Below are positions 10,371-60,142 of a DNA stretch of 64,000 nt, piece after piece (position 1 is the stretch's first letter; each line of letters begins with the position of its first letter). The translations under genes were made by a program, and so were the position numbers. The stretch comes from Nitrosopumilaceae archaeon. Lineage in GTDB: Archaea; Thermoproteota; Nitrososphaeria; Nitrososphaerales; Nitrosopumilaceae. The DNA lies in contig CBDCCK010000002.1 in NCBI GenBank assembly GCA_965214835.1, forward strand, positions 2,080,001 through 2,144,000. The letters run 5' to 3'. The notes under the pieces are model-generated. The model did not search any database. It was given only the letters and a program-made list of their open reading frames with translations, and was not told the origin of the DNA.

Positions 10371-10384
10371 AATGGGCCGGCTTG

Positions 10385-17418: not shown

Positions 17419-19136
17419 AGACCTTATGCGTAAACGAAATTAGCGGCGATGCCCCCGGCGCACGGGCTACAAATGAGGCAAGTCAGGGCCGGCGCACGCG
17501 CGACTGTACCTTACAACGTTGAAAATATTTGATCAAAACCACAACTATTTTCAGACGATTGATTTAGATCCGGGATCCATTCTCGCATAAGAGTAATGGC
17601 AAAGTCCGAGACCGAGCAGATACGACTGCTGAAGAAGAGAATCGAGCAGTACGAGAAGGAGAAGGTACAGGACAGGAAGGAGAAGGCGCGGGACAAAAAG
17701 AAGATCAAGAAGTATGAGAAGAGGATCAAGAGGCACGAGAAGAAGAGCAGGCAGGACAGGAAGGAGAAGGCGCGGGACAGGACGGAGAGGATGCAGTACA
17801 GGAAGGAGATCAGAGAGTACGAGAAGAAGAGCAGGCAGGACGGCAGGAGGCAGGAGCGGGATCAGGAGAGGATAGGGCAGCTGGAACAGCAGCTGGACGC
17901 CGAGCGCCGGATGTGGCCCGCAACCTGGGATGACGACAGGCGCTCCGCGGACAACGCCGCCCTCATGCACAGGCTCGAGGTGCTCGATGACATAATCGGT
18001 GGCGGGTCCCTGCAGCCCACCACGTCGATGAACCTCCGCCAGTTTGACTACATATATGACCGGTTTACGAAGCTTGCCAAAAAGCACACAGAAGGCCCCC
18101 TGTTCTCAGAAGACGAGGACAACTTGCCCGGAAACCGGTGCAAGCTGTCCTACCGCCACGCCCTGCTGATGTCGCTGATGCGCAAGTACGGAAACCCGAC
18201 ACAGGAGCAGCTTGCGGCATTCTTTGGCATAGACCAGAGCACCGTATGCAGGTACCTCAGGTATTGCGACATGATATTTCTCAAGATACTGCCCACGCCG
18301 GACGCCGTATCGCGAAAGATACGAAACGCCCGCACGATCAAGGAAGTCAAGAAGATCGTCCCGGATCTGACCGTGATTGTAGACGGCACGCACATCGACA
18401 TACAGCGCCCCATAGACAAGGAGCCAAGAAAGGAGGCATACTCTGGCAAGAAGAAGAGCTTTACGCGCAACACCCAGGTGATTGCCGACAAGAAGGGACT
18501 GGCGATGTATGCAAGCAAGTCGGCGCCCGGAAGCACGCACGACCTCACCATGATAAAGAACAACCCACCGGATCTGGGAATCCTGACTGCCAGGATGCGC
18601 AGCAACAGAAAGCACCCCGAGGACGAGAAGGTAAAGATGTTCTCTGATCTGGGATACATGGGAATCGAGGAGGTGTATCCCGGGGCCACATCCGTGCAGC
18701 CCGACAAGAAGCCAAGGAAAGGCAAGCTTACAAAGAAACAGAAAGCGCAGAACAGGAGGATAAGCAGCAAGAGGGTGACAGTAGAGCACGCCATAGGACG
18801 GATAAAGCAGTACAAGCGGATGCGTGATCCGTACGACGGGACCGCCGAGGAGTTCGACAGGGAGTTCCAGGTGACGGCCGGGCTTGCCAACTTTAGGCTG
18901 CTGTGGGACAAGCGGAACAAGAAGCTCATGCATGGGTTCTGATACCACGATACGGAGCGCATTGCGGCGCCACACGATGCCGCACTATACTGTAGTTTTT
19001 ACCAGCTGTAATGGCTCGTAGCTGCACTATATACGGACTCTGCCGCCCTCATACACGTCATGTGATGCCGTCAGCCTTGCATGTATGGCCGGCCACCGTC
19101 GGAATATTTCGATCCGGTCGATTACGCATAAGGTCT
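17419..19136 (+). mobile_element. IS5-family ISL2-like element
   Basis: TIR AGACCTTATGCGTAA/TTACGCATAAGGTCT; 3-bp TSD ATG. Confidence 0.95.
17596..18942 (+). CDS. transposase (HTH plus DDE_Tnp_4-like) with charged N-terminal repeats
   Basis: VDGTH...RP, YSGKKK, HD, DLGY, RVTVEHAIGRIK. Confidence 0.92.
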   Translation: MAKSETEQIRLLKKRIEQYEKEKVQDRKEKARDKKKIKKYEKRIKRHEKKSRQDRKEKARDRTERMQYRKEIREYEKKSRQDGRRQERDQERIGQLEQQLDAERRMWPATWDDDRRSADNAALMHRLEVLDDIIGGGSLQPTTSMNLRQFDYIYDRFTKLAKKHTEGPLFSEDEDNLPGNRCKLSYRHALLMSLMRKYGNPTQEQLAAFFGIDQSTVCRYLRYCDMIFLKILPTPDAVSRKIRNARTIKEVKKIVPDLTVIVDGTHIDIQRPIDKEPRKEAYSGKKKSFTRNTQVIADKKGLAMYASKSAPGSTHDLTMIKNNPPDLGILTARMRSNRKHPEDEKVKMFSDLGYMGIEEVYPGATSVQPDKKPRKGKLTKKQKAQNRRISSKRVTVEHAIGRIKQYKRMRDPYDGTAEEFDREFQVTAGLANFRLLWDKRNKKLMHGF

Positions 19137-20130: not shown

Positions 20131-20871
20131 CATACCTTTCGAATGAACCCTGTTTTGACTCAAAGACTTCTGCTCGTTGCCACATCTGTGTTCAAACTGC
20201 ATTGAACAAAACAAAGAGAAATTACAGATGCGCCCAGTAACCGTTTCGACAATTTTTTAGAAAAATTTGAACAAATGGAAGTAGGGACATTTTCAACTTT
20301 TGTTTCATAACATGAGAAAAAGACACAGGATTAAGTATGCCAGTCTGACTACTTTTGATGATGACTAGAAATCTAACCGTATTCATGACAGCAGTCTTGA
20401 TGGTTGGGATTGCAGGACTGTCTGGAAATCTAATTCCGGAAGCTGAAGCCGTTAAAGCCAAAGGCGTACCGTCATCCGGTACTGGTTCTGCCTCTCAAAT
20501 CTGCGGACTTGCTATGTGCTCTGAATATCCGGGCGGAAAAGAAGCATATCAGGCAAACTGGTTTAAAGCATACTTGAAAGCCCCAAGCGTCTCAGTTGGT
20601 TCTACTCCGATGCATTCTGATGATCACTCTGACCATAAGGCAGGAAAAATCGTACCGACTGCACGTACTGCAGACTCTGAGTATCCGGCACAACTAGATG
20701 TTTTTATCCACAAGTTCGAGTTGGACAAGATCTCGGCTGAAGAAGCTCTAGATGGAATCAAAGAGGTGCATGGTGCATATGTTGGTGTAGGAATCTCAAA
20801 TGACATCATCGACGATGTGGGTGATAAGCTAAGTCTCTACGACAGGGGAACTCTCAGCGTTGAGGATACAA

Positions 20872-21382
20872 TCGAGGCAGTTCACCTGTCGGCCGAGCCG
20901 CAAAACGTAAACCCCGAGTACCAGGGCGCATTGGACGAGGTAATACACAAGTTCGAACTGGACAAGATCTCGGCTGACGAGGCCATTGACGGCATCAGGG
21001 AGGTGCATGACGGCTTTGTTGGGCTGTACATCACGTCTGATCTGATTGAGGCAGTTGACGTAATCATCGGCCACATCGACTCCGGCAGACTGTCCGGAGG
21101 TGATGCAGTCGAGGCAGTTCACCTGTCGGCCGAGCCGCAAAACGTAAACCCCGAGTACCAGGGCGCATTGGACGAGGTAATACACAAGTTCGAACTGGAC
21201 AAGATCTCGGCTGACGAGGCCATTGACGGCATCAGGGAGGTGCATGACGGCTTTGTTGGGCTGTACATCACGTCTGATCTGATTGAGGCAGTTGACGTAA
21301 TCATCGGCCACATCGACTCCGGCAGACTGTCCGGAGGTGATGCAGTCGAGGCAGTTCACCTGTCGGCCGAGCCGCAAAACGT
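20872..21382 (+). repeat. exact 237-bp tandem repeat (~2.15 copies)
   Basis: Identical units start at 20872, 21109 and 21346. Confidence 0.95.
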
Positions 21383-21482
21383 TGATCCAGAGTTTATTGG
21401 AGCAATAGATGAACACCTGCACAAGTTTGAATTAGATAAAATGTCATCTGAAGATGCCATGGCAGGTGTCATTGAAGTACAT

Positions 21483-45530: not shown

Positions 45531-45715
45531 TCTTTTTGAGTAAGGGTTTGCCCCTAGGCGATACTATCTGCAGATCCCTTGATCACATGGCCCCGTGCCA
45601 TGTCCTCGGGAGGGGCAGACTCGCCTTTCTGACTGATCCGCAAGAATCTCAAAATATTTGGTGGATTTGTCGTAAAAATCAGGGAGGCGAATCAACGGCA
45701 TGCGGGTGTGGCCTA

Positions 45716-46076
45716 GCTTGTTGCATAACCCTGCCTAAAATTTTGAGCTTGGCCAAAAATCACCAAGATGATCAACGGATCCTGACCGAGAGGGTAAAGG
45801 ATCATGGGAGCGGCATACATGGTACTTGGCATATACGGACAATGCGTTATACGTAGAGGGTGCAGACCTGGTCGTCGAGATCGTAATATCGGTCATAGAG
45901 CGCATGTTTGGCTAGGACGTGATGGGCCACAAGTGGTCCAACATGGTGCATGAGATAAAGTTGGGGGTGTGGATGTACAACAAGTGGGTTGTGGAGGCGG
46001 TTGGCCGTGTGGGAACCGCGCACCGGTTATGATCCGGGCGGATCGACTGGGCTCTAGTCGGGGTTGTGCAGCAGAC
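45716..46076 (+). mobile_element. IS903-like (IS5-family) internally deleted element
   Basis: TIR GCTTGTTGCATAACC/GGTTGTGCAGCAGAC flanked by TA; left part matches 50255-50410. Confidence 0.8.
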
Positions 46077-46121
46077 TAGGAAATCGGAAAGGTAATAAAT
46101 GCCCTCTGATACGAGGTGGAT

Positions 46122-47420
46122 ATGGCAGATAAGGAGCACCTGAACTTAATCGTAACAGGTCATATTGATAATGGAAAGTCCACAACCATGGGACACTTTT
46201 TAATGGATCTCGGCGTTGTTGATGAGAGAACTATTGCAGCCCACGCCGCCGAATCCGAGAAGACCGGAAAGGGCGACACGTTCAAGTACGCCTGGGTCAT
46301 GGATAACATCAAAGATGAGAGGGAAAGGGGCATTACCATCGATCTCGCATTTCAAAAGTTCGAGACACCAAAGTACTTTTTCACGCTGATCGATGCCCCA
46401 GGCCACAGGGACTTTATCAAGAACATGATTACCGGCGCATCTGAGGCAGATGCCGCAGTCTTGGTACTATCTGCAAAGGAGGGCGAGACTGACACGGCAG
46501 TTGCAACGGGCGGGCAGGCAAGAGAGCACGCATTCCTATTAAAGACGCTGGGCGTGAACCAAATCATCGTTGCAATCAACAAGATGGATGACAGCAACTA
46601 TTCCGAGGACGCGTTCAAGGCGGCCAAGGAAAAGGGCGAAAAGCTCATCAAGTCAGTCGGCTACAAGCCTGACAACGTACCGTTCATTCCTGTCTCCGGG
46701 TGGAAGGGCGACAACCTGGTAAAAAGGTCAGAAAACATGTCGTGGTATTCCGGTAAGACACTGCTTGAGGCATTTGATGACTTTGCCGTGGCAGAAAAAC
46801 CGGTTGGAAAGCCGCTGCGCGTCCCAATCCAGGATGTCTACACCATTACCGGCGTGGGTACCGTGCCTGTGGGTAGGGTAGAGACTGGCACGATGAAGCC
46901 CAATGACAAAATCGTCGTAATGCCTTCGGGCGCAGTAGGCGAGATAAAGTCAATAGAGACACACCACACACAGCTGCCGTCTGCCTCGGCAGGCGACAAC
47001 ATCGGCTTTAACCTCCGGGGCATCGAAAAGAAGGACATCAAGAGGGGAGACGTCATGGGGAGTCCCAACGATCCGCCAAGGGTGGCAAAAGAGTTCAAGG
47101 CCCAGATTATCGTCATCCACCATCCGACGGCAATCGCGCCCGGATACACACCGGTAATGCACTGCCACACTGCGCAGGTGGCAGCGACCGTCACGGAGTT
47201 TATCTCAAAGATCAACCCGGCAACCGGCGCAACCGACGAAGAAAGCCCGAAATTCCTCAAGGTCGGAGACTCTGCAATCGTAAAGATCAGGCCGGTAAGA
47301 CCGACTCCTATTGAAACGTTCCAAGACTATCCGGAAATGGGAAGATTCGCACTCAGGGATATGGGTGCCACAATCGCAGCCGGAGTCGTCAAGGAAATCA
47401 CCGAAGAGCACAAGCCATAG
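46122..47420 (+). CDS. tuf: elongation factor 1-alpha
   Basis: GHIDNGKST, ERERGITID, DAPGH, NKMD. Confidence 0.98.
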   Translation: MADKEHLNLIVTGHIDNGKSTTMGHFLMDLGVVDERTIAAHAAESEKTGKGDTFKYAWVMDNIKDERERGITIDLAFQKFETPKYFFTLIDAPGHRDFIKNMITGASEADAAVLVLSAKEGETDTAVATGGQAREHAFLLKTLGVNQIIVAINKMDDSNYSEDAFKAAKEKGEKLIKSVGYKPDNVPFIPVSGWKGDNLVKRSENMSWYSGKTLLEAFDDFAVAEKPVGKPLRVPIQDVYTITGVGTVPVGRVETGTMKPNDKIVVMPSGAVGEIKSIETHHTQLPSASAGDNIGFNLRGIEKKDIKRGDVMGSPNDPPRVAKEFKAQIIVIHHPTAIAPGYTPVMHCHTAQVAATVTEFISKINPATGATDEESPKFLKVGDSAIVKIRPVRPTPIETFQDYPEMGRFALRDMGATIAAGVVKEITEEHKP

Positions 47421-47430
47421 GTCGGGTTAG

Positions 47431-47739
47431 TTGACTCAGTCTGCCCGTATCAAACTCTCAAGCACCAGCCTCCCTAGGCTAGACGGGGTATGCGGCGAGA
47501 TTATGGGTATAGGCAAAAAGACCGGCGTCCGGGTAAAGGGGCCGACCCCGCTTCCTGTCAAGAGGCGGCACGTTGCTACAAGAAAATCCCCCTGCGGCAA
47601 CGGCACCGAGACCTACGAAAAGTGGGAGATGAGGATGCATAGGAGAATTATTGACATTAACGCAGATGACAAGGCAATCAGACAGCTGATGAGGCTAAAG
47701 ATACCAGATGACGTCTATATTGAGCTGTCGCTGACATAG
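47431..47739 (+). CDS. rpsJ: ribosomal protein uS10
   Basis: GPTPLP, RKSPCG.G, MRMHRR. Confidence 0.96.
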   Translation: MTQSARIKLSSTSLPRLDGVCGEIMGIGKKTGVRVKGPTPLPVKRRHVATRKSPCGNGTETYEKWEMRMHRRIIDINADDKAIRQLMRLKIPDDVYIELSLT

Positions 47740-47749
47740 GGGTTGTAAA

Positions 47750-47953
47750 ATGTCCAAAGACTCCCCTGAAGCTACCGAGGGCCTAGAGGCCGCACAGGCA
47801 GAAATATTTGACGTCGTCTACTCCTGCCTGAGGTGCGGGACAAACGTGTCCAATACAGATCTGAGCAGGCTACCTGAAATCAAGTGCATCTGTGGATTCA
47901 GGGTGTTTACCAAGGTCAGACCCCCTGTTGTAAAGTCCGTCAAGGCAGTGTAG
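47750..47953 (+). CDS. rpoP: RNA polymerase subunit Rpo12 (P)
   Basis: YSCLRCG...C.CGFRVFTKVR. Confidence 0.88.
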   Translation: MSKDSPEATEGLEAAQAEIFDVVYSCLRCGTNVSNTDLSRLPEIKCICGFRVFTKVRPPVVKSVKAV

Positions 47954-47955
47954 AA

Positions 47956-48153
47956 CTATCTGTCCTTTTTGTAGCTGTGCTCCCTTTGCAGGTGCGCCCT
48001 CATATCCTCCATGCTTGAGAAGTTTTTGGCACACTCCTTGCAGTCATACGGGCTGTCCTTAAAGTGGACCGCTTGCTTGTGATGCATCAGCTCCTCCTGC
48101 CGTGAGAACCCTGACGCGCACAAGCCACACCGGTGTTTTTTGAAGAGGCCCAT
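47956..48153 (-). CDS. double C2H2 zinc-finger protein
   Basis: Two Cx2C-x12-Hx4H motifs. Confidence 0.85.
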   Translation of the reverse strand: MGLFKKHRCGLCASGFSRQEELMHHKQAVHFKDSPYDCKECAKNFSSMEDMRAHLQREHSYKKDR

Positions 48154-48156
48154 TCC

Positions 48157-48567
48157 CTATCCGTACTTTGCCTTTTGCTCGTCCCAGCACCTTCTGCAGA
48201 GCTGGCCTTCGATCTTCCACTTTGGCTTGGGGTTGTACCGTATCAGCCCCATCTTGCCGCTGCATATTGTGCAAAAGTTCCTTTTCTCGTTGAATCCTGA
48301 CTCTTTTTTATCAAAACACTCCTTGCAGAGTAGCCCATCCATGTCCCACTGCCACCTTGGCTCCCACATGTCTGAGATCTTCTTGGTGGTGCCGCAGACA
48401 ATACAGGGCTGCCTGACCTTGGCCTCGTAGAACTCGTTTGACTTGTCCATGTGGCAGTCCCCGCAGAGCCTTCCATTGATGTTCCACTCCCGCTTGGGCT
48501 TGTGCTTGTGAGTGAGCTCCTTGCTGCATACTGCGCAATATTCCACCTTTTTGCCAAACAGGCCCAT
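48157..48567 (-). CDS. tri-repeat CxxC zinc-binding protein
   Basis: Three CxxC...P..W...G.LCxxC units. Confidence 0.85.
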   Translation of the reverse strand: MGLFGKKVEYCAVCSKELTHKHKPKREWNINGRLCGDCHMDKSNEFYEAKVRQPCIVCGTTKKISDMWEPRWQWDMDGLLCKECFDKKESGFNEKRNFCTICSGKMGLIRYNPKPKWKIEGQLCRRCWDEQKAKYG

Positions 48568-48629
48568 GATATCACTGGCTGGTATTTGATTAAAAATGAT
48601 TCGAGGCAAAAACGGGCGGGATTTGGCGA

Positions 48630-48755
48630 CTAGGATTCGTCAAGAATCTTCTCGATTGCCTGGCTTGCGTTTAGCATGCCGTGCTCCCTTGCAAATTCCT
48701 CGATGATCCTGTACTGCTCGGTTGTAAAGCAGATCGGCATTGAGCGCTTGTCCAT
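48630..48755 (-). CDS. small ribbon-helix-helix-like protein
   Basis: 41 aa: MDKRSMPICFTTEQY..IEEFA...ASQAIE. Confidence 0.65.
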   Translation of the reverse strand: MDKRSMPICFTTEQYRIIEEFAREHGMLNASQAIEKILDES

Positions 48756-48844
48756 GATGGTAGCAGGGGCTGTTATTTAATATGCCTTCCGATGCTCGTA
48801 GCCTGTTGAACACATGATAAAAACGCCCCCGCCGTAGCCAGGGT

Positions 48845-48955
48845 GATGGATCAACCCCTCGTTATGCATGTGCTTCGCGCACTACCTGTTGAATGGGGAT
48901 ATCCGAGCTGCTGTGTTCCTGTGCTACGCGCACTGATGGATGAATGCAGCTTCTG
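48845..48955 (+). ncRNA. predicted bridge RNA (target and donor loops)
   Basis: Two stem/internal-loop modules whose loop strands match the target and circle junction; conserved in three copies. Confidence 0.8.
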
Positions 48956-48995
48956 ATCTGTCAAACCATATCCGAAAGGAGGTGAAAGAAAAGGA

Positions 48996-50073
48996 TTGAG
49001 AAGCATAGGAATAGACATTGGAAAGAGAAAATGCGCAGTGTGCGTCATCGACGCCAAGGGACACGTGCTAGAGGAGGGCTCGTATAACAACACGTACAAG
49101 GAGGCATCAAAGCTTGCTGCACGACTGAAAAAAGAGTACAAAAAGTGCCAGGCCGCGTGCGAGTCAACGGGCAACATGTGGCTAAAGACGTTCAGGGCGT
49201 TTGAGGATCAGCATATCCCCATACTGCTTGCAAACACCCTCAAGATGAAGATAGTATCAGAGACCAGCGCAAAGACCGACCCGATAGACGCAAGGAAGAT
49301 AGCCGACACGCTCAGGGCCGGAATGATACCACGATGCTACGTGGCATCAGCAGAGCTGAGGGATGTCAGGGAGCTGATGAGGTACAGGATACGGATGGTA
49401 CAGGAGAGGACCGCAGTCATAAACGGGCTGCACAGCTTGGCTTGACAAGTACGACATAGCCATAGATGCATCCACGATGTACTCCAAGAAGGCCATACGG
49501 AAGATCTCCGATACCAGGCTGAACATGCCAAACGATGACAGGATACTGGCAAGCTGCACTAGGAGGATTGCATCAGTTACAGAGGAGATAGACCAAGCAG
49601 GGGAGGACATAGGAAGACAGGCAGGATCGAACGAGGATGCCAAGCTGCTGTTGAGCATGACGGGAATAGACACCTTTGCAGCAATGCTGCTGATAGCAGA
49701 GATCGGCGACATAACCAGATTTCCATCGCCGAACCAGCTTGTGTCCTGGGCCGGCATGTGTCCCCGGGTGTACCAGTCGGGGGATCGCGAGTACTACGGC
49801 CACATGAAAAAGGATGCAAACCGCAGGATCAACTGGCTGATGATCCAGATAGTCAACGTCGCCGTACAGCACGACGACAGGATGAAAGAGTTCTACGAGA
49901 GGGTCCGCAAAAGGAACGGCAACAACCACGTCATAGCGATAACGCATGTTGCAAACAAGATGCTCAGGATAATCTGGCACATGCTGACGACAAAGACTGC
50001 GTATTCATCGCGCAATGCTGTCCTGTACGACAAGAAGATCAAGAGGGTGACAGAACTGGCGGGAACGGCATAG
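48996..50073 (+). pseudogene. IS110 recombinase, one frameshift near 49440
   Basis: GIDIGK, ESTG, KTDPIDA; C-terminal G.CP...QSG. Confidence 0.92.
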
Positions 50074-50254
50074 GATTACCACCTTCCTCCCCCACCCACC
50101 CACCCAATGATCCGCCCGCACCCTGGCAGGTGCGACAGGACTGGCTCGTGCGTATTGCTAGCGTTAGCTATAAAGCACGGCCCGGCCGACTAGGCACGGA
50201 TCAGAAGACGAAAGGAACGTCGCCATGTTACTGGCGGGCGTTTTACCATGGATG

Positions 50255-50640
50255 CATAACTCTGCCTAAAATTTGAAACTTGACCAAAAATCACCCAAAT
50301 TATCAACGGATCCTGACCGAAAAAGTAATGGAATATGAGGATGCCACGTATGGTACTTGACACACACGGACAATGCCAAGTACGGAGGGGGGTAGGCCTA
50401 GTAGTCAAGTACGATCCAGGCTGGGAGAATGATCTCAAGAATGCCAACTGCCACAAGGAGGGTGCCCCGTTCCTGTACGCAGATGGCATGATAATGGTCG
50501 CGGCGGCCCTCAGAACCGCATTCATGATGCCGTACAGGCAGCTGTCAGGCATGATCAGGGAAATGCTAAGGGGCATGGACTCGTCGTGCTATGCCACGAT
50601 ATTTGGGAGGATGCAAAAGCTTGACGTCGACATTGCATAG
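50255..50640 (+). mobile_element. IS903-like remnant whose left TIR is interrupted by IS110 copy 1
   Basis: VRRG...W...KEG.PF.Y...PYRQ..G; GCCTGT-TG-CATAAC reconstitutes the TIR. Confidence 0.8.
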
Positions 50641-50719
50641 TCAACACATAAAAAAAACGGATTGTTTTGACAACTATTTTTGATCCAAAGATCTAAGACT
50701 AGGGGAGCCATACATATGT

Positions 50720-51095
50720 GCATCAAAGCGCAAGCAGAACGAGTTCAAGGAGGCAGCGCAAAAGCTGATCAGGGAAAATACGGCACAAGGGTATACGGTA
50801 CTGGCAGAAGACGAGTCCTCCGTGCAGAAGACCTCGAACAGCCCCAAGCGTGGGTGGACAAAGCGCGGCATGAGCGTCACGGTGCCCTCGTCCCTGTCAC
50901 GGCCGCGCCGGTACATGTTTGGCGTACTGTCAGCTAGTAGACTTTATGCGTAATCGGTTCAGATCTAGGATTATTAGGAACAAATTCATCTCATTCAGGT
51001 CGATTACGCATAAAGTCTAGTGTATTCTACTTTATGTTCTATGACAAGACCAGCACCGACAGCTTTTGCGACTTTTTTGGCAAATGCACACAAGG
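50720..51095 (+). mobile_element. IS630-family remnant
   Basis: AEDES...GW...G...MFGVLS|..FYF.FYDK. Confidence 0.7.
50939..51018. mobile_element. 80-bp MITE of the ISL2-like family
   Basis: TIR AGACTTTATGCGTAATCG/CGATTACGCATAAAGTCT; TSD AGT. Confidence 0.9.
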
Positions 51096-51097
51096 TC

Positions 51098-51148
51098 TGA
51101 TCTACAAGCTTGGCGGTCATTTTACAGGAAGTTTTTTTGGATAGCCCC
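51098..51148 (-). mobile_element. IS5-type left-end fragment
   Basis: Reverse match to 11651-11700. Confidence 0.7.
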
Positions 51149-51228
51149 GGCTGATTTCTGGAAAAATTCCGGATAATGCAAGCTATACTTTTCTGACTGC
51201 AAAGATTTTACGTGGGCAGATCCCAGTC

Positions 51229-51741
51229 ATGCACATGAAAAAGCGCCAGATTGTAGTCATCGGGCACAACGACAACGGCTGTACGCCCGAGCACGAGAGG
51301 ATTGCATATGATACCGGTGTCGAGGTTGCAAAATCCGGCTCGGTCCTAGTTACCGGAGGCCTGGGAGGAGTGATGCGCGCCTCCTGCCATGGTGCATCTG
51401 ATGCAGGGGGCATAACCGTGGGCATACTGCCCCAGGATGATCCCGGCTTTGCCAACGAGTACTGCCAGATTGTAATACCAAGCGGCATGGGGCTGACCCG
51501 GGACTTTCTCAACGCGCTTTCGGCAGACGGCATCATAATCATCGGCGGCGGCTCTGGAACCCTCTCTGAGGTGTGTGCCGCGTACATGCACAAAAAGCCG
51601 ATGGTCGCAATCAGAAACACCGGCGGAACCGCCGACAGGTATGCTGACAGCTATGTCGATCACCGGCAGAATGTGAAGATCATAGGTGTGAGTACGCCAA
51701 AGGAGGCAGTGGAAAAAATCCTGGAACTGATCACTTCATAG
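51229..51741 (+). CDS. TIGR00725/LOG-like Rossmann protein
   Basis: TGGLGGVM, GILP, GGGSGTLSE. Confidence 0.9.
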   Translation: MHMKKRQIVVIGHNDNGCTPEHERIAYDTGVEVAKSGSVLVTGGLGGVMRASCHGASDAGGITVGILPQDDPGFANEYCQIVIPSGMGLTRDFLNALSADGIIIIGGGSGTLSEVCAAYMHKKPMVAIRNTGGTADRYADSYVDHRQNVKIIGVSTPKEAVEKILELITS

Positions 51742-52867
51742 ACTCTAGTAGCGGATCCGGCCTGTAGAACTCGCCGCCTTCCTGTGCAAGCCTGTCCAGC
51801 TCTGCAACGATTCTGCCCATCCCGATCTCCCTTGCCGTCTCAAACAGCGGCCTCTTGAGGCCCAGCCCCAGCCTTGCGGCCATTTCGAGCTCCTCAATGT
51901 CGCTTGCCTTGTTTGTGACCAGCCATGCTGCATTGTTGAGAACATTTGCCACCAGCGGGATGGGGTCGAACTTTCCTGCCAGCTCCTCTGAGAGCCCCAC
52001 CCTCTCATACTTGTCATCAGAGTACCTGTAGAACCCCTCGCCTGATTTCTGGCCCAGCCTCCCATCTTCGAACATCTTCCCGATTGTAGGATGCGGCAGG
52101 ACAACCTTCTTGTCCCTGAGATGCATCTCGGTAGTCGCCTTGTGGATGACGTCCATGCCGGTAAAGTCTGCCAGCTCAAAAACCCCCATCGGGAACCCCA
52201 TCTTGAACTTTACCGCAGAGTCAATCTCCTCCAGGGAGGCGCCCGTCCTGTCCATTGCATAGCATGCCTCGTGGACCATGGGGATAAACAGCCTGTTGAT
52301 TATGAATCCGGGAACGTCCCGCCTGCACAGGACTCCTTGCTTCCCTACGGACTCTACGTACTCCCTTGTCAGCCTGAGCGTCTCCTGGGAGGTCTTTTGG
52401 CCCGGGATGATCTCGACTAGCTTCATCAACTGCGGAGGATTGAAAAAGTGGATTCCGATGAATTTGTCCGGGCGCGAGATCGACTCTGCAATCTCGGTAA
52501 TCGGCAGCGTGCTTGTGTTTGATGCAAAGATCACCCCTTCATCGGATGCCTCGTCTAGCTCCGCATAGACCTTTTTTTTCAGATCCATGATTTCAGGAAC
52601 CACCTCGATTACCATCTCTGTGTCCCTGACTGCCTCCTTGAGATCCACGACCGGCGTTATTCTTCCAAATATTGCGTCTGCCTCGTCCTTTGGGATTTTT
52701 TCCTTTGAGACCATCTTGTCTAGGCTCCACCTGATCTTCTCCATCGCCTTATCCAGGAACTCCTGCCGGATGTCCCGCAGTACCACGTCGTATCCTGCAG
52801 CAGCTGAGACCTGCGCTATTCCGTGTCCCATGACCCCCGAGCCTAGAACCGTGATGCTCTTTACCAT
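51731..52867 (-). CDS. 3-hydroxyacyl-CoA dehydrogenase (likely 3-hydroxybutyryl-CoA, 3HP/4HB cycle)
   Basis: GSGVMG, SNTS, HFFNPP...LVE, GFIINR. Confidence 0.93.
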   Translation of the reverse strand: MVKSITVLGSGVMGHGIAQVSAAAGYDVVLRDIRQEFLDKAMEKIRWSLDKMVSKEKIPKDEADAIFGRITPVVDLKEAVRDTEMVIEVVPEIMDLKKKVYAELDEASDEGVIFASNTSTLPITEIAESISRPDKFIGIHFFNPPQLMKLVEIIPGQKTSQETLRLTREYVESVGKQGVLCRRDVPGFIINRLFIPMVHEACYAMDRTGASLEEIDSAVKFKMGFPMGVFELADFTGMDVIHKATTEMHLRDKKVVLPHPTIGKMFEDGRLGQKSGEGFYRYSDDKYERVGLSEELAGKFDPIPLVANVLNNAAWLVTNKASDIEELEMAARLGLGLKRPLFETAREIGMGRIVAELDRLAQEGGEFYRPDPLLESMK

Positions 52868-53163
52868 AAGTGAGGGATCCTGCCATCCCTTATTATCCTA
52901 TTTGACCGGCGATCCTTGACGTGTTGTCTGAAAACCATGTTCGTTAGTAACTGATGTCCGTCTACATACATTTTGGATCACTTTTTCTGACTGCTTTTGT
53001 GAACAGGCTAGGACACTAGACCTTATGCGTAATCGGTTAAAATCAAAAAAGTCAGGCAGCTTTTACGTCATTTTTGACAAATACACAAAGTATGATGGTA
53101 TCAGAAGGCGGTTGATCCGTTTGCATTCTTGCCAGTTTGACCCAGCTAGGATGCATTTTGCTT

Positions 53164-53255
53164 GTACGAGGCCACCTCTCATTGAGCAAATAGGCGTGAA
53201 TTCGCATGCTGCTGTGATTTTCATGCCTAGCCAGCAATGGGACGTGACCACGTAT
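53164..53255. mobile_element. IS66-like MITE family A
   Basis: GTACGAGGCCAC...GGGACGTGACCACGTAT; TSD not preserved. Confidence 0.75.
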
Positions 53256-53336
53256 GCTGTCCCGTCCGGTTCCTATCCTATAAGCAACCACGTTTAATCC
53301 GCATGGTTTTTAACGGATTTTCAAGCCTAGCTTGGC

Positions 53337-53501
53337 ATGGGGCTGTTTGGACGCAAAAAGGACGACAAGAATACAAAGTGCAAGGAATGTGGGCTGGATC
53401 TGCCCACCCCCGAAAGGCTTGAAAGGCACATGAAAAAGGCACACGGAAACATTCCTGAGAAAAAGTTTGATCCAAACCGTGCCGGGGATGGTACCTGGTA
53501 A
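53337..53501 (+). CDS. small C2H2 zinc-finger protein
   Basis: 54 aa with CKECG...LERHMKKAH; stop overlaps the next ATG. Confidence 0.75.
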   Translation: MGLFGRKKDDKNTKCKECGLDLPTPERLERHMKKAHGNIPEKKFDPNRAGDGTW

Positions 53502-53779
53502 TGGATGAGCTAAGCGACGGGAAAAAACACACCCTGATCTTCGGGGGCGCCCTGGTCATTGCGGGCCTAGTTATAGCAACCGTGGTGTTTCCCTTCTGGA
53601 ACCTGATACGCGAGGATGTCTTTGAGGAGGCCGAGATTCTAAAAAACGACGGGGGGATCTGCTATGTGGAGACCTCCGACAAGATCCCAAAGACCATTGA
53701 GGACTGTACCCACATGCCCGGAGACATCGTGGTGGTAAAATACGGCCGGGGACTCGCATGGGCGACCATCGAGCCCTGA
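53501..53779 (+). CDS. membrane-anchored hypothetical protein
   Basis: TM helix plus a small beta domain. Confidence 0.75.
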   Translation: MDELSDGKKHTLIFGGALVIAGLVIATVVFPFWNLIREDVFEEAEILKNDGGICYVETSDKIPKTIEDCTHMPGDIVVVKYGRGLAWATIEP

Positions 53780-53811
53780 ATGCTTAATACCGGACGGCCC
53801 GATCCACCGTC

Positions 53812-54219
53812 ATGGACTGCATATTTTGCAGGATTGCAGGCGGCAAGATTCCTGCAAGGATACTGTACGAATCCAACAGCGTTATGGCGTTTTTGGACGC
53901 GTTTCCACTGGCAAGGGGGCACTCCCTTGTAATTCCCAGGCGGCATTTTGAGAGGATCCAGGACATGCCTCCTGATGTAAGCTCTGCAGTCTTTGAAGTC
54001 GTCCGCAGGTTGGCATCCGGGGTTGATGCCGTTGCCGGCTCCACGCTGGTCGCTGTCCATAACGGACGGGGAAGCGGCCAGGAGGTTCCTCACGTCCACG
54101 TACACCTGATTCCCAGGGGACCTGATGATGGTGCAGGCACGGTGCACACCATGTTCAAAAACAGCGTCGAGCTAGATGACTCTGACCTTGCCTGCATCCA
54201 GGATGCCCTGAGGCTCTAG
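53812..54219 (+). CDS. HIT-family hydrolase
   Basis: CIFC, GH.LVIP, HVHVHLIP. Confidence 0.95.
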   Translation: MDCIFCRIAGGKIPARILYESNSVMAFLDAFPLARGHSLVIPRRHFERIQDMPPDVSSAVFEVVRRLASGVDAVAGSTLVAVHNGRGSGQEVPHVHVHLIPRGPDDGAGTVHTMFKNSVELDDSDLACIQDALRL

Positions 54220-54881
54220 TGCGGGTATAGACGTTCCCTGGTGTCGCTGTTTTTGACGTTTATGGCTCTGGTCGGGCATGTCTCTGCTGCATTCATGATC
54301 TTGTTGATGCCCGCGCCCCGTCTGTTGATTACCCTGGATTTCGGGTTGGTTTGGGACTTTTTATCGATGTGAAAGACCTCTGGCGCGATGATCTCGCAGC
54401 TGCAGCACCCTATGCACAGGCTGGGATCCACGTCCACCAGCAGATCCGGCTGCTCCTTGGGCTCCTTTGTCTTGTCAAACTCCCCGTTTTGCCCGTCTGC
54501 ATTTACGGTCCTGTCGTACTCATCCCAGAACTTTCTTTCGTATTCTTTCCACCACTCGGGGTCTCCCTCCTCGAACCCCCGTGTGAACTTGCCCCAGTCC
54601 TGCTCCGGGGGATCCCCTCTTGGCGGTGCACCCCACGGTGACTGCGGCTTTGGCCTCCGGCGCGTCTTTTCTGTAGCGGTCGCCTTTTTTCCATTTTTAT
54701 GAAAGTCCTTTAGGACGTTGTAGGCCTCGGTGACCCTCTTGAACTTCATGCCGTCCTTTGACTCCTTGTTTTTATCCGGATGTGACTCTAGGGCCAGCCT
54801 CCTGTATGCGTCTCTGATTTCATCTAGGGTCGCGTCGCTTTGCAGCTGCAACGTCTGGTATGCCTGACTCGTGTTCACCAC
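54216..54881 (-). CDS. DnaJ-domain/ferredoxin fusion
   Basis: HPD motif; CIGCCSC...CP. Confidence 0.92.
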   Translation of the reverse strand: MVNTSQAYQTLQLQSDATLDEIRDAYRRLALESHPDKNKESKDGMKFKRVTEAYNVLKDFHKNGKKATATEKTRRRPKPQSPWGAPPRGDPPEQDWGKFTRGFEEGDPEWWKEYERKFWDEYDRTVNADGQNGEFDKTKEPKEQPDLLVDVDPSLCIGCCSCEIIAPEVFHIDKKSQTNPKSRVINRRGAGINKIMNAAETCPTRAINVKNSDTRERLYPH

Positions 54882-55208
54882 CTTTCCAGTCTTCTTACTG
54901 TTTTAAAAACAATGTCTATTCTACGACCTCCTTGCCCTCGACTATCCACGCCAGCTTGACTATGCATAGAAGCCTTGTCTCTGGCCACCGTAAGGCACAC
55001 AAGGCGGCACCTAGTGCCTTCTATCCTACCGTTCTTGCCGTCATGTAGGACTCGGCCGTGCTGGTGCCCGGCCTCCTGTGTCATACCTTGTGGGTCATCT
55101 TCGGTAAGAGCTTGCACGCTCCAAAAGACACAGCGTGATGGGCAGGTGATCAAGGGTTTTGTCTTGGCATCAAAAACTATTGGGCTGCTCACCTCCATAG
55201 ATCTAGCT

Positions 55209-55299
55209 GTACGAGGTCACCTACCCCACAAATCAGGCACGAATTGGCATGTACAATTGTGATTTCCATGCCTAGCCAGCAAGGGACGTGACCACATAC
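55209..55299. mobile_element. IS66-like MITE family A
   Basis: TIR GTACGAGGTCAC/GTGACCACATAC; 8-bp TSD ATCTAGCT. Confidence 0.9.
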
Positions 55300-55476
55300 A
55301 TCTAGCTGATCAGAAAAACCACACAACATCAGATCCTCAACTCTCTAGGCGTAAAACATTCATCCAAATTTCCTGTTCACGCCTGATTTTACGGATGATC
55401 TGACGTTGTACAATCATTATAAGATACTAGCCTTCTGCGTCCTCAAACCCCCCAATACCGCCTATTGACAGCCTTT

Positions 55477-55935
55477 TCATTTTATGATGCCTGTCGCTCT
55501 GCCCTTGAAGTCAGACTCATACCATGTCGTCTTGTACTCTGCGTTTTTTCTAGGCGGGATGTTGACTGCAATGTGCGCAAAGGTCTTCCGGGTGCTCGTA
55601 GAGCCATGCGTGTGCAGCTGCCTTGCGGGGATGTATGCTGTGTCTCCTTTTTTTAGCGAGATTTTCTGCGTCCTTTTGATGCCAAAGCTGTCATTTTTAC
55701 CCCCATGCCTTTTGAACAGCTCCAGGCTACCTGGGCCCTCTGTTACAATGAGAACTTGGCCACCGTTGTGCCAGTGAAGCTTGGTCCTTGAACCCTTTTC
55801 AAAGTAAACGTGGTACATCTTATGCTCGGTGATTTTCAGCGCCTCTCCGATATCCCTCATGCGTGTCTTTGCAGTAAACCAGTCCGGATTGATTCTTCTC
55901 TGACTTCCTCCTGCGTAAATATTGATTTTGTCCAT
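55477..55935 (-). CDS. cupin-domain protein
   Basis: HWH..GQ.L.V..G, GD...IP....HTHG. Confidence 0.9.
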   Translation of the reverse strand: MDKINIYAGGSQRRINPDWFTAKTRMRDIGEALKITEHKMYHVYFEKGSRTKLHWHNGGQVLIVTEGPGSLELFKRHGGKNDSFGIKRTQKISLKKGDTAYIPARQLHTHGSTSTRKTFAHIAVNIPPRKNAEYKTTWYESDFKGRATGIIK

Positions 55936-55987
55936 AATCTAAGCACATGCATGTATGTGATATACTTAGCTATATACTCGGTTTTCC

Positions 55988-57439
55988 CATCTATGTTAAA
56001 ACGCCCGGGCCCTTTAGCGGTGGCAAGCTGTGTCTCTCTGATCCACGCCTAGTTTGATATGGGCCGCCTTATGGCTTACGCTGGGTACAGGGGTCTGTTC
56101 CCCGTGTGGGAATGGTGCGCATTACTTTGCTGTCTTCTTCCCAGCCTCGGATGGCGGCTCGGATGCTGCTGCAGTAGTAACAGCGGCAGTAGCAGCAGCC
56201 TCTGCCCTGTCCATCTTGAGGCCGTACGTCCTGGGATCGTGTCCGGAGTATGGCGTCTTTGTCACGAGCATGGACCAGATGATCCTGATCATCTTGGTTG
56301 CCACGTACGTCCTGGCCACCATGGACCTTGCGCTGCTCCTCTTCTTGGATCCTGCATGGATCCTTCCCATCCTCTCGTCGTATATGGCAGCCGTCCGCGC
56401 AGCCTGAAGCATCGCCCGGTTGCACCTGTGGTTGGATGTCTTTCTCATCTTGCCGCAGTACTCCCTGTCGCCGGACTGGTGGACGGTCGGACACATGCCG
56501 AACCACGCAACAAGCTTGCCCGGGGTCTTGAATCTGCCAGTATCTCCGATCTCGGAGACCAGCAGCATGGCCGCGAGTCGATCCCCGGAATGCTCATCGG
56601 GATCCTCGCATCCTCGCTGGCGCCGGCCTGTGCGGCTATCTTCGTCTCGATGTCTGCAATCTCCTCCGTGGGCTGCCTGACCCTTCTGGTATGCGCGCCA
56701 AGAACCGCCCCGTCGTTGGGATCATCAGGTGCCATGTCTGTCAGCTGCCTGAGTCCCTTGTCGGAGTACGCGTGTGACGAGTCGATCCTCTCGTAATACC
56801 TGTCCGGGAGGCCGTGGATCCGGTTGATCACGGCCGTCCTAGCCTGCACGGGGCCGATCCTGCAGCGCATCAGCTCCATGACGCTCCAGAGTCCGGGCGG
56901 TGCCACGTAGCACTTGGGAACCATTCCGGCCCTCAGGGCGTTTGTGAGCCTTCTTGCGTCGATTGGATCAGTCTTTACGTCAATGTCCGAGATTATCCGC
57001 ATCCTGTAGGTGTTGGCAAGCTTGACGGGTATTCCTGCGGACTAGAATGCCTCGTAGGTCTTGAGCCACATGTTGCCTGCGGACTCGCAGACGGCCTGGC
57101 AGTTCCTTCCGTAATTGAGCCTTGTCTTCCTGGCAAACAGGCCCGCCCTCCTTGGAGGTGTTCTCGTATGCCGTCTCTTCTTGGATCCTCTTTTTGTCGT
57201 CCATAATGCACGCTATGCGTTTTCTCTTTCCAATGTCTATTCCTATGCTGCATTACATCTTTTCTCGTCTTCCTTTTTTTGTGGTTCAGAGGCTGCACAC
57301 GTCCATCAGCACGCCGTGGTGCACGAACACTGCAGCTCGGAATTACCGCATTCAGAAGTCAGCGCGCGGGGTGCATGGGAAGACAGCGGTTGATCCACGT
57401 CACCACTGCTACGGGCCCGGGCGTTTTAACCCGTGTTCA
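55988..57439 (-). mobile_element. IS110-family element, copy 2 (multiply frameshifted recombinase ~56122-57253)
   Basis: GIDIGK, ES.G, KTDPIDA, QSG; subterminal IR TTAAAACGCCCGGGCCC; TG core. Confidence 0.9.
57288..57397 (-). ncRNA. predicted bridge RNA of IS110 copy 2
   Basis: Same two-module layout; target-loop strands GTCTTCCCA and ACTTCTG match its own flanks. Confidence 0.7.
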
Positions 57440-58051
57440 AAAGTTCCCCACAAGACGGCTGCAAACTCGAAACGGTTCAAGCAAGGCTGCCTACAGATCC
57501 GCACACATCCATCTGCACCGCCACGAGTCAGTTACTTCTGGGAGGACTGTAGCTTGGTCTGATCAACGCATCTGCGTTTGGAAAACCTTGCGGAATTTTT
57601 AACCACGGTCGATTACGCAAAGTCTACTTTTCACTTAGCTGACTATAGCGTAGCACGCAGCACGGCTATGCCAGCTCCCACCATTAGGACATCCACGGCA
57701 CTTTCCATCATTTTGTCTACTGTGACTTGATTTAAGGTGTAACTCTTGCCGTTTTTCTGTTGTATGATCAAACGAAAGCGGTTCCGGAATTGGTGGGATC
57801 ATGCGACAGGCAAGCACGTACTAGACTTTTGCAGATGTAATTCGTGCCTAAAATCGTAAATCACCCAAGCCCGATCTGCTGCTGATGTGTGATACCACGC
57901 CTCCTTGGTAGCCATGCATGAAAATCAGTTCCATGCAGCTCGTACCTGGTTGCTAGGTGGAATGAGGCCTAGTGCATTTTGGTTAGGAAATTTAGCATTT
58001 TGTCTAAACAAGCAAAGCTGATCCCTATAAGATCACTTTTCACTTAAAACT

Positions 58052-58225
58052 ATGTCCTTCCAAGAACGGCAGCAGATGAGGAGTATAGACGAGCTAATCC
58101 TCCGGGCCACCCCAGAGGAACTCAAGAAAATCCAGGAGCTAGACGTCTCTACCCAGCTTGACGGCAGGTCGTTTTATGATACGTGTGTAGAGTCAAGGGA
58201 ATCCCCACTTGCCAGATCCAAATAG
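58052..58225 (+). CDS. 57-aa hypothetical protein
   Basis: ...ATPEELKKIQELD..TQLDG.SFYD...; below the ORF-track cutoff. Confidence 0.6.
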   Translation: MSFQERQQMRSIDELILRATPEELKKIQELDVSTQLDGRSFYDTCVESRESPLARSK

Positions 58226-58265
58226 CCATTCTTAGTTTAAATGAGGGAATTTCAGCTTCTTGCAT

Positions 58266-59327
58266 ATGTCTGCCACAAAGGCCGTCAAAAAGACTGCCAA
58301 AAAGACGGCAAAAGGCACCGCCAAAAAGACGGCTTCAAAAAGAGTATCCAAGAAGACCAGAGTCGTCTGCATCTCCCACAAGGAGGATGCAGACGGAATC
58401 AGCTCAGCGGCGCTGATCCGCCAGGCGTTTGGTGGCGACTCTATCCTAGTTGACTATCCGGGACAGATGGATGCCATAGAGCAGGTATCTGGAGATGAGA
58501 GGCTAAAGGCACTGTACATCTGTGATCTGGGCCTCAGCAAAAAGAACCAGGACAGGTTCGTCGAGATCATGGCCGGACTTCGCAAGAGGCGCGTTGCAGT
58601 CACATACATTGACCACCATGACATTGATCCTGCAATCGCCAAGCAGCTAGGTGAGATCAAGGTCAGGATGATCCACGACACCGGCGAGTGCACCGCAGTT
58701 CAGGTGTACGACTCGTACAAGTCAAAGCTGAACGAGCACGCCTCGTTTGTTGCAGCCTGTGCCGCAATTACCGACTACATGGAGGACAGGCCAGTTGGCG
58801 CTAGGTTGCTGCAGGTATATGACAGGCAGTTTGCCTTGATCAACGCCACCGTCCTCACATACAACATCGTGGGGCATCAAAAGGACGAGGACTATCTGAT
58901 GTACCTGGTGGGGGAGCTGGCCGACTCTAAATACCCGCACCAGATTCCAAACTCCTTTGAGTTTGCACAAGTCCAGGTGGAGAGACTGGCAGAGGTCATC
59001 GCCAAGGTCAAAAAGGGGATGAAGAGGATGTCGAACCTGGGCCACATGGAGATTCTGGATGCCGGGGCAAGTGGCGCCGTAAACTTTGTGCTCGGCCTGT
59101 CCGGCAAGGACGTCGGGGTCGCCTACAAGGAAAGGGTTGATCACGGAATCTATGCCGTCTCTGTGCGCGGCTCCAAAGGCTGCAGGATCCACCTTGGAAA
59201 GATCGTCAATGTCCTGGCTGCCGATCTGGGTGGCTCCGGCGGCGGCCACGACAGGGCCTGCGGCGCAGTCATCCCAAAGCCCAAAATCAAGACATTCCTG
59301 AGGGAGTTTAACAAAAAGCTGGGATAG
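58266..59327 (+). CDS. DHH/DHHA1 phosphoesterase (RecJ-like)
   Basis: H..DADG, DHH, SVR, GGGH. Confidence 0.92.
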   Translation: MSATKAVKKTAKKTAKGTAKKTASKRVSKKTRVVCISHKEDADGISSAALIRQAFGGDSILVDYPGQMDAIEQVSGDERLKALYICDLGLSKKNQDRFVEIMAGLRKRRVAVTYIDHHDIDPAIAKQLGEIKVRMIHDTGECTAVQVYDSYKSKLNEHASFVAACAAITDYMEDRPVGARLLQVYDRQFALINATVLTYNIVGHQKDEDYLMYLVGELADSKYPHQIPNSFEFAQVQVERLAEVIAKVKKGMKRMSNLGHMEILDAGASGAVNFVLGLSGKDVGVAYKERVDHGIYAVSVRGSKGCRIHLGKIVNVLAADLGGSGGGHDRACGAVIPKPKIKTFLREFNKKLG

Positions 59328-59396
59328 GTGCACTTAATCTGGGGCGCTTTTTTGTTCGGGACTGCAACTGACGCATCGTATGGGGTTTATGCCCTT

Positions 59397-59495
59397 GGAC
59401 AGGCATGCGCTAACCTGCGTGCAAATGTAATCATATTTGGGATTAAAAGTGGGATCAGAGGAATTGCAGGACAGGCATGCGCTAACCTGCGTGCA
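59397..59495. repeat. 27-bp direct repeat, two copies, 72-bp period
   Basis: GGACAGGCATGCGCTAACCTGCGTGCA at 59397 and 59469. Confidence 0.9.
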
Positions 59496-59570
59496 GCTGC
59501 AATCTTTATGTCTGGTCAGTAGGGATGTGGCCTCATACTTGGATAGGCTCTTACCTACAGGCCACGAATA

Positions 59571-60016
59571 GTCTGTTGAGTACATGATAAAAACACCCCA
59601 CTGTAGTCAGGGTGCTGGATCAGCCCCCACCATGCACGTGCTTCGCGCACTATCTGTTGAATGGGGCAGTCAGAGCTGCTGTGTTACTGTGCTTTACGTA
59701 CTGGTAGATGACTGCAGCTTTTGGTACATCAAGACTAGGCGGAAAGAAACCGTCTGCGATGACTCGCCTCCTGTCCCACCACCCATCCAATGATCTGGGA
59801 GGATATGACATGACCGCACTGGGACAAGGCAGGTGCTATTGCATCGTGCAGCCAGCTAGCTGTAAAGTGGGTCACGATCAAGTAGGCATGGATCAGAGGA
59901 AACTAGGAGCATCGTCGTTTCTGCGATGGGTGTTTTTAACATAGATGCATAACCATGATTTTAGGCACAAAAGATCAGTCACCTTTGCGTGTTCAGGCAC
60001 GGCTATGCAACAAGCG
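59571..60016. mobile_element. IS903-like MITE hosting the IS110 mini-element
   Basis: GTCTGT-TG-CATAACC ... GGCTATGCAACAAGC. Confidence 0.7.
59577..59947 (+). mobile_element. non-autonomous IS110 derivative (left and right ends only), copy 3
   Basis: Colinear with both non-coding ends of copy 1, no recombinase ORF; TG cores and subterminal IRs. Confidence 0.88.
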
Positions 60017-60142
60017 TAAGGTGCGAGATCATGCCTCCACTATGAATCGATAAACGTTGATGCCTGTACCTGTAAGCGCACGTACGATATTCCGGTATGC
60101 ATACCTGCCAATACGGATATACAAGTAGGCGGGTCGGACGAC

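Follow-up and report, generated by a model that had tools for sequence, protein, structure and literature searches.

IS110-family elements and their insertion sites

The sequence analysed here (the window) is a stretch of 64,000 nt from a Nitrosopumilaceae archaeon (GCA_965214835.1, contig CBDCCK010000002.1, positions 2,080,001-2,144,000 of the forward strand, corresponding to G000:C2:2080001-2144000; coordinates with a contig prefix refer to the genome, plain coordinates to the window). It contains three elements of the IS110 family of insertion sequences (IS), located at 48809-50254 (+), 55988-57437 (-) and 59579-59947 (+). All three lie within the terminal inverted repeats (TIRs) of other transposons or of MITEs (miniature inverted-repeat transposable elements), and the relation between these sites and a guide-like RNA region at the left end of the elements is the subject of this report.

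The first element (lineage A, 1446 bp, 48809-50254, +) has TAGCCTGT-TG as its left flank and TG-CATAAC as its right flank. The outer 10 nt of the split host TIR, TAGCCTGTTG, are found at 48799-48808 (+), with the TG core as their final two bases, while a second copy of the core forms the last bases of the element. Beyond it, at 50255-50651 (+), the TIR resumes with its inner part (CATAAC...) and continues into ~400 bp from the start of a truncated IS5-family host copy, 86% identical to the full element over positions 9-410. The recombinase gene is divided into an N-terminal half with the RuvC-like DEDD domain (48996-49445, +), ended by a frame break near 49440, and a C-terminal half with the Transposase_20 domain in the next frame (49477-50073, +). 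The two halves matched PF01548 (DEDD_Tnp_IS110, 1.1e-29) and PF02371 (Transposase_20, 5.7e-25), and scored 108.9 and 121.9 bits against the NCBIfam model NF033542 ('IS110 family RNA-guided transposase'), each below the cut-off of 140, which is set for the whole protein.

The third element (59579-59947, +) is a 369-bp derivative without a recombinase gene, which retains both ends, the RNA region being part of the left one. Its flanks are TAGTCTGT-TG and TG-CATAAC; the outer 10 nt of the split TIR, TAGTCTGTTG, lie at 59569-59578 (+), and the rest of the host, a mini-MITE of ~76 bp belonging to the IS5-family element, at 59948-60017. In both insertions the split target is the TIR TAG-yCTGT-TG|CATAAC, which belongs to an IS5-family element or to MITEs derived from it. 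The second element (lineage C, 55988-57437, -) is 65% identical to lineage A and is inserted in the TIR of a MITE of ~121 bp, the remainder of which, with the other TIR intact at about 57534-57549, occupies 57438-57549.

An uninterrupted relative of the host is present at 45714-46078 as an internally deleted, MITE-like derivative with both TIRs intact (361 bp when taken as 45716-46076); in the 1396-bp full element, it corresponds to positions 6-172 and 1188-1396. As proposed in an earlier note made from the letters of the window, the sequence from 50253 is colinear with 45722-45860 (78% over 139 nt), and both match the same end of the 1.39-kb IS5-family element. The note had also pointed to empty 14-mers at three places, and these were confirmed as GCTTGTTGCATAAC at 45716-45729 (+), GTCTGCTGCACAAC at 46063-46076 (-) and GCTTGTTGCATAGC at 60002-60015 (-), the position 60016 given for the last being one base off. 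Three such matches stand against 0.02 expected, and none of 100 shuffles reached three. Relative to the 13-nt guide target described below, the two TIRs of the derivative at 45714-46078 carry one and three mismatches, and the far TIR of the mini-MITE carries two.

Genome-wide, lineage A comprises eight full copies with 98.2-100% identity, and in all of them (8/8) the left flank is TAG-nCTGT-TG and the right flank CATAAC; none lies outside these TIRs, in agreement with the expectation that most copies would be found in them. The tips of the element (AACAC... and ...GGATG) form no TIRs of their own, and TG is found on both sides of the insertions vs a single TG in the empty sites. Read by eye, the left end (CATGATAAAAACGCCCCCGCC) and the right end in reverse complement (CATGGTAAAACGCCCGCC) share a subterminal match of ~20 nt, which is imperfect and gapped, and on which a gap-free repeat finder was silent.

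The hosts of the lineage A copies represent four contexts, comprising both IS ends and both mini-MITE ends, and the insertion point is 10 nt from the host tip. The left flanks have nothing in common past the 10-nt part of the TIR, save for an unrelated 204-nt repeat in one pair, and the similarity of the right flanks ends with the host element (59-403 nt), within which it amounts to 88-98%. As the flanks are unrelated outside the host element, the copies are best regarded as separate insertions.

The guide-like RNA region and its match with the flanks

The left end of the element is composed of two modules, a target module followed by a donor module, and in each of them an internal loop separates a stem from a hairpin (48845-48960, +, in the RNAalifold model). 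This arrangement agrees with that of published bridge and seek RNAs. The RNAalifold consensus of 19 sequences from four genomes contains 25 pairs, five of them with compensatory changes, and several conserved G-U pairs fit the + strand only, which fixes the strand of the predicted RNA. In the target loop, the 5' side GTTATGCA (48861-48868, +) is the reverse complement of TG plus CATAAC, that is, of the core and the right flank, and the 3' side CCTGTTG (48885-48891, +) equals the left flank plus core and runs on into AA, with which the element begins. These guides lie at element positions 53-60 and 77-83, upstream of the start of the open reading frame (ORF) at position 188, and the match with the bottom strand is located 5' of that with the top strand. 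The target-matching segments are in the left end and not downstream of the gene as in IS1111; the 178-nt right end was not exhaustively searched for a second RNA.

The donor loop (48913-48944, +) matches the joined ends of the element itself: GTGTTC (48913-48918) corresponds in reverse complement to GAACAC, at the start of the left end, and ATGGATGAA (48936-48944) reads as the right end, TG and then the first bases of the left end. Its 3' side follows the right end in sequence, with TGGATG in lineage A and TAGATG in the element at 59579. Across lineages, the target loop is hypervariable and the donor loop conserved.

The left guide is identical to the left flank in both window copies, namely CCTGTTG in lineage A (48885-48891 vs 48802-48808) and TCTGTTG in the element at 59579. 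The claim that occupied ends match the adjacent left guide exactly therefore stands for the window, and genome-wide it applies to six of the nine copies with two flanks; in the remaining three, one or two guide positions at the outer edge deviate.

A further complementarity of 10-13 bp was observed between the segment just after the donor module (48950-48961) and the right end (50196-50207), ~50 nt from the end. It was present in 13 of 13 elements looked at (in the window, among the C2 copies, and in L003, L007 and L004), with -13 to -22 kcal/mol, values that come with no shuffle control, and the pairs vary by lineage on both sides (CTTCTGATC/GATCAGAAG, TCTCTGATCC/GGATCAGAGA and TTCCGATCCGT/ACGGAACGGAA). 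It might close an RNA spanning the circle junction or pair both ends of a full transcript.

The host transposon and the census of its ends

The host is exemplified by a 1392-bp element at C2:189795-191186 with an open frame of 411 codons. Its transposase matched the Pfam domains DDE_Tnp_1 (PF01609) and DDE_Tnp_1_5 (PF13737) and scored 166.6 bits against the NCBIfam IS5-family model NF033579 (cut-off 140), and on these matches the host element is assigned to the IS5 family. The TIR reads TAGnCTGTTGCATAAC at both ends; the target was correctly recognized as a TIR in the earlier note, although the repeat starts two bases (TA) further out. Direct repeats of 8 bp were found outside the TIR in four of four elements read. 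The IS903 group of IS5 has a 9-bp target duplication and an IS903-type TIR; judged on duplication length, with no IS903 reference sequence compared, the proposed assignment of the host to an IS903-like subgroup is not supported.

The host family occurs in three forms: full or truncated copies, the internally deleted form, and the ~76-bp mini-MITE with about 50 copies. The transposase gene carries an in-frame tandem repeat of 54 bp (peptide unit of 18 residues), the number of which differs between C2:189795-191186 (1392 bp) and C2:2913910-2915409 (1500 bp), two copies that are otherwise 99.7-99.9% identical. In one mini-MITE (C2:2950193-2950268), both TIRs are occupied, by a full lineage A copy and by a right-end remnant of a small derivative.

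As a scan for the 14-mer with three mismatches was too noisy (369 matches), the host ends were listed genome-wide by profile searches (E < 1e-4). This yielded 128 host TIR ends, 12 of them occupied (nine with both flanks kept) and 116 empty. The perfect 12-mer CTGT-TG-CATAAC was found at 9/9 two-flank insertions vs 9/116 empty ends (Fisher 3e-9). When the 13-mer was considered, ends without mismatch were occupied in six cases and empty in four, those with one mismatch were occupied in three and empty in 25, and those with two or more were occupied in none and empty in 87. Moreover, among the 39 ends perfect at positions 4-14, a C at TIR position 3 was associated with occupancy in 9/18 and a T in 0/21 (p = 2e-4); the TIR ends are related by descent, so that this and the preceding Fisher p-value overstate their independence.

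Taken together, occupancy across the genome follows the quality of the match, and it tracks the guide down to a single base, which bears out the central claim of the earlier note that the IS110 guide is directed to the terminal repeat of a different transposon family; neither a majority of copies outside these TIRs nor an occupancy unrelated to the match was found. Site-specific and oriented insertion, complementarity of guide and flank, dependence on the match and a conserved RNA fold are, at the level of sequence comparison, demonstrated, and the RNA-guided targeting of TIRs that they suggest is well supported.

Perfect sites are also found empty, four at 13/13 and nine at 12/12. Two full-length host copies (99.7-99.9% identical) carry GACTGTTGCATAAC, with the perfect 12-mer, at all four ends, none of which is occupied; in the one whose frame was read, it is open over 411 codons. 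The four occupied IS-type ends are all on truncated remnants of 205-577 bp.

Sister lineages aimed at other transposon termini

A profile search of the left end recovered 30 left ends from lineages A to D, and 28 of them adjoin one of four transposon termini, four of the 28 being degenerate matches. The flanking sequence was TAG-nnTGTT(G/A) in 14 cases plus one degenerate case, CAGTAGTTG in five, ...ACTTCTG in five, a GGGGTTG-like sequence in three (two of them degenerate) and something else in two. In lineage A, the loop GTTATGCA / CCTGTTG corresponds to the IS5-family TIR. Lineage B, with the loop CATTTTCA / GTAGTTG, is found at CAGTAGT-TG-AAAATG, which is the TIR of an element of 1364 bp that encodes a DDE_Tnp_1 transposase. 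In lineage C, which includes the window copy at 55988-57437, the loop is TCTTCCCA / ACTTCTG (guides TTCCCA(TG) and ACTTCTG) and the target is ACTTC-TG-GGAAGA, the TIR of the ~121-bp MITE, which has short target duplications. Lineage D, with the loop ACGCGACA / GAGGTTG, is found at GGGGT-TG-TCGCCTAA, the TIR of a 134-bp MITE with 8-bp duplications.

In all four lineages, the target loop segments change together with the flanks, and the distance from the host tip to the insertion point is 7-10 nt in each of the four host families. The DNA of lineages A and B is 86% identical and their donor loops are nearly identical, but their targets are unrelated. Many perfect sites remain empty in these lineages as well, 23 for lineage B and 61 for lineage C, the latter nearly all MITE ends. 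Outside this genome, a relative with 72% identity was found in G010, from another genus of the same family, inside a terminal repeat that occurs 26 times (reversed-pattern control, 0), paired at spacings of ~1.2 kb and ~80 bp.

The broken recombinase gene and the small derivatives

One extra G near 49440 splits the recombinase ORF in 8/8 lineage A copies and in two lineage B copies (C2:1519219 and C2:1302397). The sole unbroken recombinase frame among lineages A to D is that at C2:513238-514647, with 379 codons. Lineage A is the youngest and most numerous lineage, despite the broken frame in each copy. Since the donor loops of A and B are nearly identical and bridge RNAs can act in trans (PMC11208160), we infer that lineage A probably moves with its own RNA and a recombinase borrowed from a sister copy. 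A programmed frameshift at the shared break (AGC TTG GCT TGA) was considered as the alternative; no slippery motif was seen at the break, and supply of the recombinase in trans is preferred.

Copies related to the 369-bp derivative at 59579 are found at about seven other places. Within lineage A and its derivatives, the guides vary at TIR positions 2-3, where they read CC, TT, TC or GC. Five left-end remnants adjoin TAGTTTGTT sites, and one of them carries the matching guide TTTGTTG.

Transposon termini as probable landing sites

The explanation that we favor, with a probability of roughly 85%, is that IS110-type elements with a guide RNA upstream of the gene use transposon termini as abundant and harmless landing sites. 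The target loop of a recombinase-RNA complex would pair with the 12-13-nt site (C)CTGT-TG-CATAAC, and an excised circle, the junction of which would read ...CCATGGA-TG-AACACATG..., would recombine into the site at the TG core in one orientation. RNA expression, circle formation and catalysis would proceed as in the published mechanism of the family. As the guide site coincides with TIR positions 3-16 of the IS5-family element and its MITEs, these repeats may serve as many harmless landing pads, and the cutting of a host end 10 nt from its tip would be a by-product.

Several observations weigh against this explanation. No Rfam family matched 48700-50400 at E <= 1. The lineage A copy at C2:1835893 has the guide TTTGTTG and yet lies in the site CCTGTTG, and the right guide of the element at 59579 matches just three of the six non-core bases of its own right flank. 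Several small derivatives (C2:639991-640362, 3124155-3124520, 10110-10500 and 655300-655667) combine flanks of two transposon families, one family on each side; in one example, TAGTTTGTTG to the left is joined with the inner TIR part of the 134-bp MITE to the right. To judge from the flanks, copies at different targets may have recombined with each other. With its recombinase frame broken in every copy, lineage A appears unable to move autonomously unless the break is read through. In G004, a genome of the same genus, four copies share about ACGTCG-TG-CCTRA, with flanks otherwise unlike, and this site is not evidently a TIR. In lineages E and F, found in the present genome via PF01548, no common left-flank motif was seen, with boundaries that may be imprecise, and these lineages are not counted as aimed at TIRs. 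The shared descent of the TIR ends, noted above, belongs to the same side of the balance. The E and F sites are G000 C2:312392-312844, C2:1548438-1548872, C2:1472973-1473407 and C1:7830-8264, with frames of 394, 369 and 368 codons, and many left-end fragments are present.

A broader interpretation is that the genome harbors a guild of bridge-RNA elements, which has radiated by turning its target loop to the ends of at least four unrelated transposon or MITE families, at 7-10 nt from the tip in every case, and which co-evolves with them, the broken and 369-bp copies keeping a guide RNA of their own and borrowing one intact recombinase. On this view, the TIR positions read by the guides would be the sole hypervariable ones, and the guide variants CC, TT and TC would follow the TIR variants. 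We regard this as possible but doubtful; if it were true, the elements would be parasites of a parasite of parasites.

Somewhat less probable still, and on balance unlikely, is an arms race, in which IS110 hyperparasites disable the host by splitting its TIR, TIR variants escape and guides chase them. Insertion 7-10 nt from the tip in every host family should part the cleavage site from the rest of the end, and the commonest empty variant, GCTTGTTGCATAAC (12 ends), was never hit. In addition, TIR positions 2-3 deviate from the majority in 19-56% of recognisable empty IS-type ends, while positions 15-27 of the same ends mostly deviate in 0-12% (31% at one ISL position); the variable positions are those at which the A-type guides differ, and with the remnants at TAGTTTGTT and their matching guide this keeps the co-evolution reading alive. 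However, subfamily structure by itself can yield the pattern at positions 2-3, A, T and C at position 2 were all found occupied, and escape would bring no individual gain to MITE copies.

The immobilisation of a competing IS, suggested in the earlier note, also fits poorly with the hosts themselves, as both young full-length copies are perfect and unoccupied at their four ends, the occupied IS-type ends being remnants, and as the perfect sites of lineages B and C are left empty in such numbers. The related suggestion of escape variants is not supported as it stands, since empty perfect sites exist, and it is not needed for the empty ends in the window, the one, three and two mismatches of which lead guide specificity by itself to predict their emptiness.

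It is very improbable that the recombinase itself recognises the site and that the loop matches are secondary, for example, as a copied flank. The 3' side of the target loop does resemble a copy of the left junction (flank, TG and AA), which is nothing specific to that view, whereas the targets of lineages A and B differ exactly as their target loops differ against a background of 86% identity and nearly the same donor loops, and the published mechanism of the family is RNA-guided (PMC11208160, PMC11187229). Finally, multiplication of the IS110 copies as passengers of the host element or by segmental duplication, to which three copies in near-alike mini-MITEs (94-97% identity over 68-70 nt) might point, is largely refuted by the flank comparison and is the least credible of these views, as the left flanks are unrelated past the TIR, the longer right-flank matches (198-403 nt) fall below the 98-99% identity of the IS110 copies, and the copies occupy four host contexts with a split TIR that is unlikely to mobilise.

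The insertions in this genome provide a natural and countable readout of bridge- or seek-RNA specificity: among 128 candidate sites, every second perfect site is filled but no imperfect site is, and one C/T difference decides. They also show that close relatives have naturally turned their target loops to four targets, and they provide a test bed for two questions: whether such elements restrain host transposons, and whether defective copies that carry the RNA can move in trans.

Other features of the window

The genes for EF-1 alpha (TIGR00483, 647.6 bits) and an archaeal/eukaryotic-type uS10 are located at 46116-47739 and mark the genome as archaeal. By eye only, a fragment at 50680-50930 resembles an IS630-type transposase and is followed by a short inverted repeat (TAGACTTTATGCGTAATCG...) at 50930-51030. 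Tandem repeats of 21 nt and 237 nt are present at 17633-17884 and 20674-21482, respectively, and are unrelated to the IS110 elements. Repeat debris is abundant in the window and in the genome, where further high-copy repeat families were met.

Comparison with known systems

That IS110/IS1111 elements target repeats is already well known. IS4321/IS5075 are said to have been found by Partridge & Hall in 2003 to target the TIRs of the Tn21 family in a site- and orientation-specific manner. These elements belong to the IS1111 group, for which subterminal inverted repeats of 7-17 bp are typical. In this group, the guide RNA lies downstream of the gene and the matches come in the other order (PMC11187229), whereas the RNA region described here is at the left end. 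They also reside in transposons of bacterial plasmids, while the elements of this study occupy chromosomal IS and MITEs of an archaeon.

The literature searches turned up no account of IS110-type elements that target MITEs or TIRs of the IS5 type, nor of such an archaeal set, although the supplementary target tables of PMC11208160 and PMC11187229 may list cases; the portions of PMC13343696 and of the preprint 10.64898/2026.08.14.744561 that were available contain nothing on the targeting of IS5 TIRs or MITEs.

IS621 resembles the present elements in having a left-end RNA with target and donor loops and in targeting a repeated genomic element (Durrant et al. 2024, PMC11208160). It differs in the order of the strand matches, which is opposite to that found here, in its core (CT instead of TG) and in its target, repetitive extragenic palindromic (REP) sequences instead of transposon ends (PMC11208160); the subterminal inverted repeat read by eye (~20 nt, imperfect, and passed over by the gap-free finder) would be a further difference of the present elements from IS621.

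A close parallel is ISEc21, a bacterial element whose target is a coding segment conserved among transposase genes of the IS3 family (Siddiquee et al. 2024, PMC11187229). ISEc21 shares with the elements described here a non-coding region upstream of the gene, a short RNA in which a bottom-strand match is located 5' of the top-strand match, a transposase of the same size class (345-385 aa, vs the 379-codon unbroken frame here) and a natural target inside another IS (PMC11187229). Unlike ISEc21, the present elements belong to an archaeon and are aimed at terminal repeats, both those of MITEs and those of DDE elements of the IS5 and other types, and several sister lineages coexist in one genome.

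The published mechanism of IS621 and ISEc21 fits the elements of this study (PMC11208160, PMC11187229), and natural re-aiming among relatives has already been described (PMC11187229). No new mechanism is revealed by our analyses, the value of which is that of a clean natural data set; through it, the occurrence of IS110-type elements inside other transposons is extended to archaea, to IS5-type TIRs and to MITEs.

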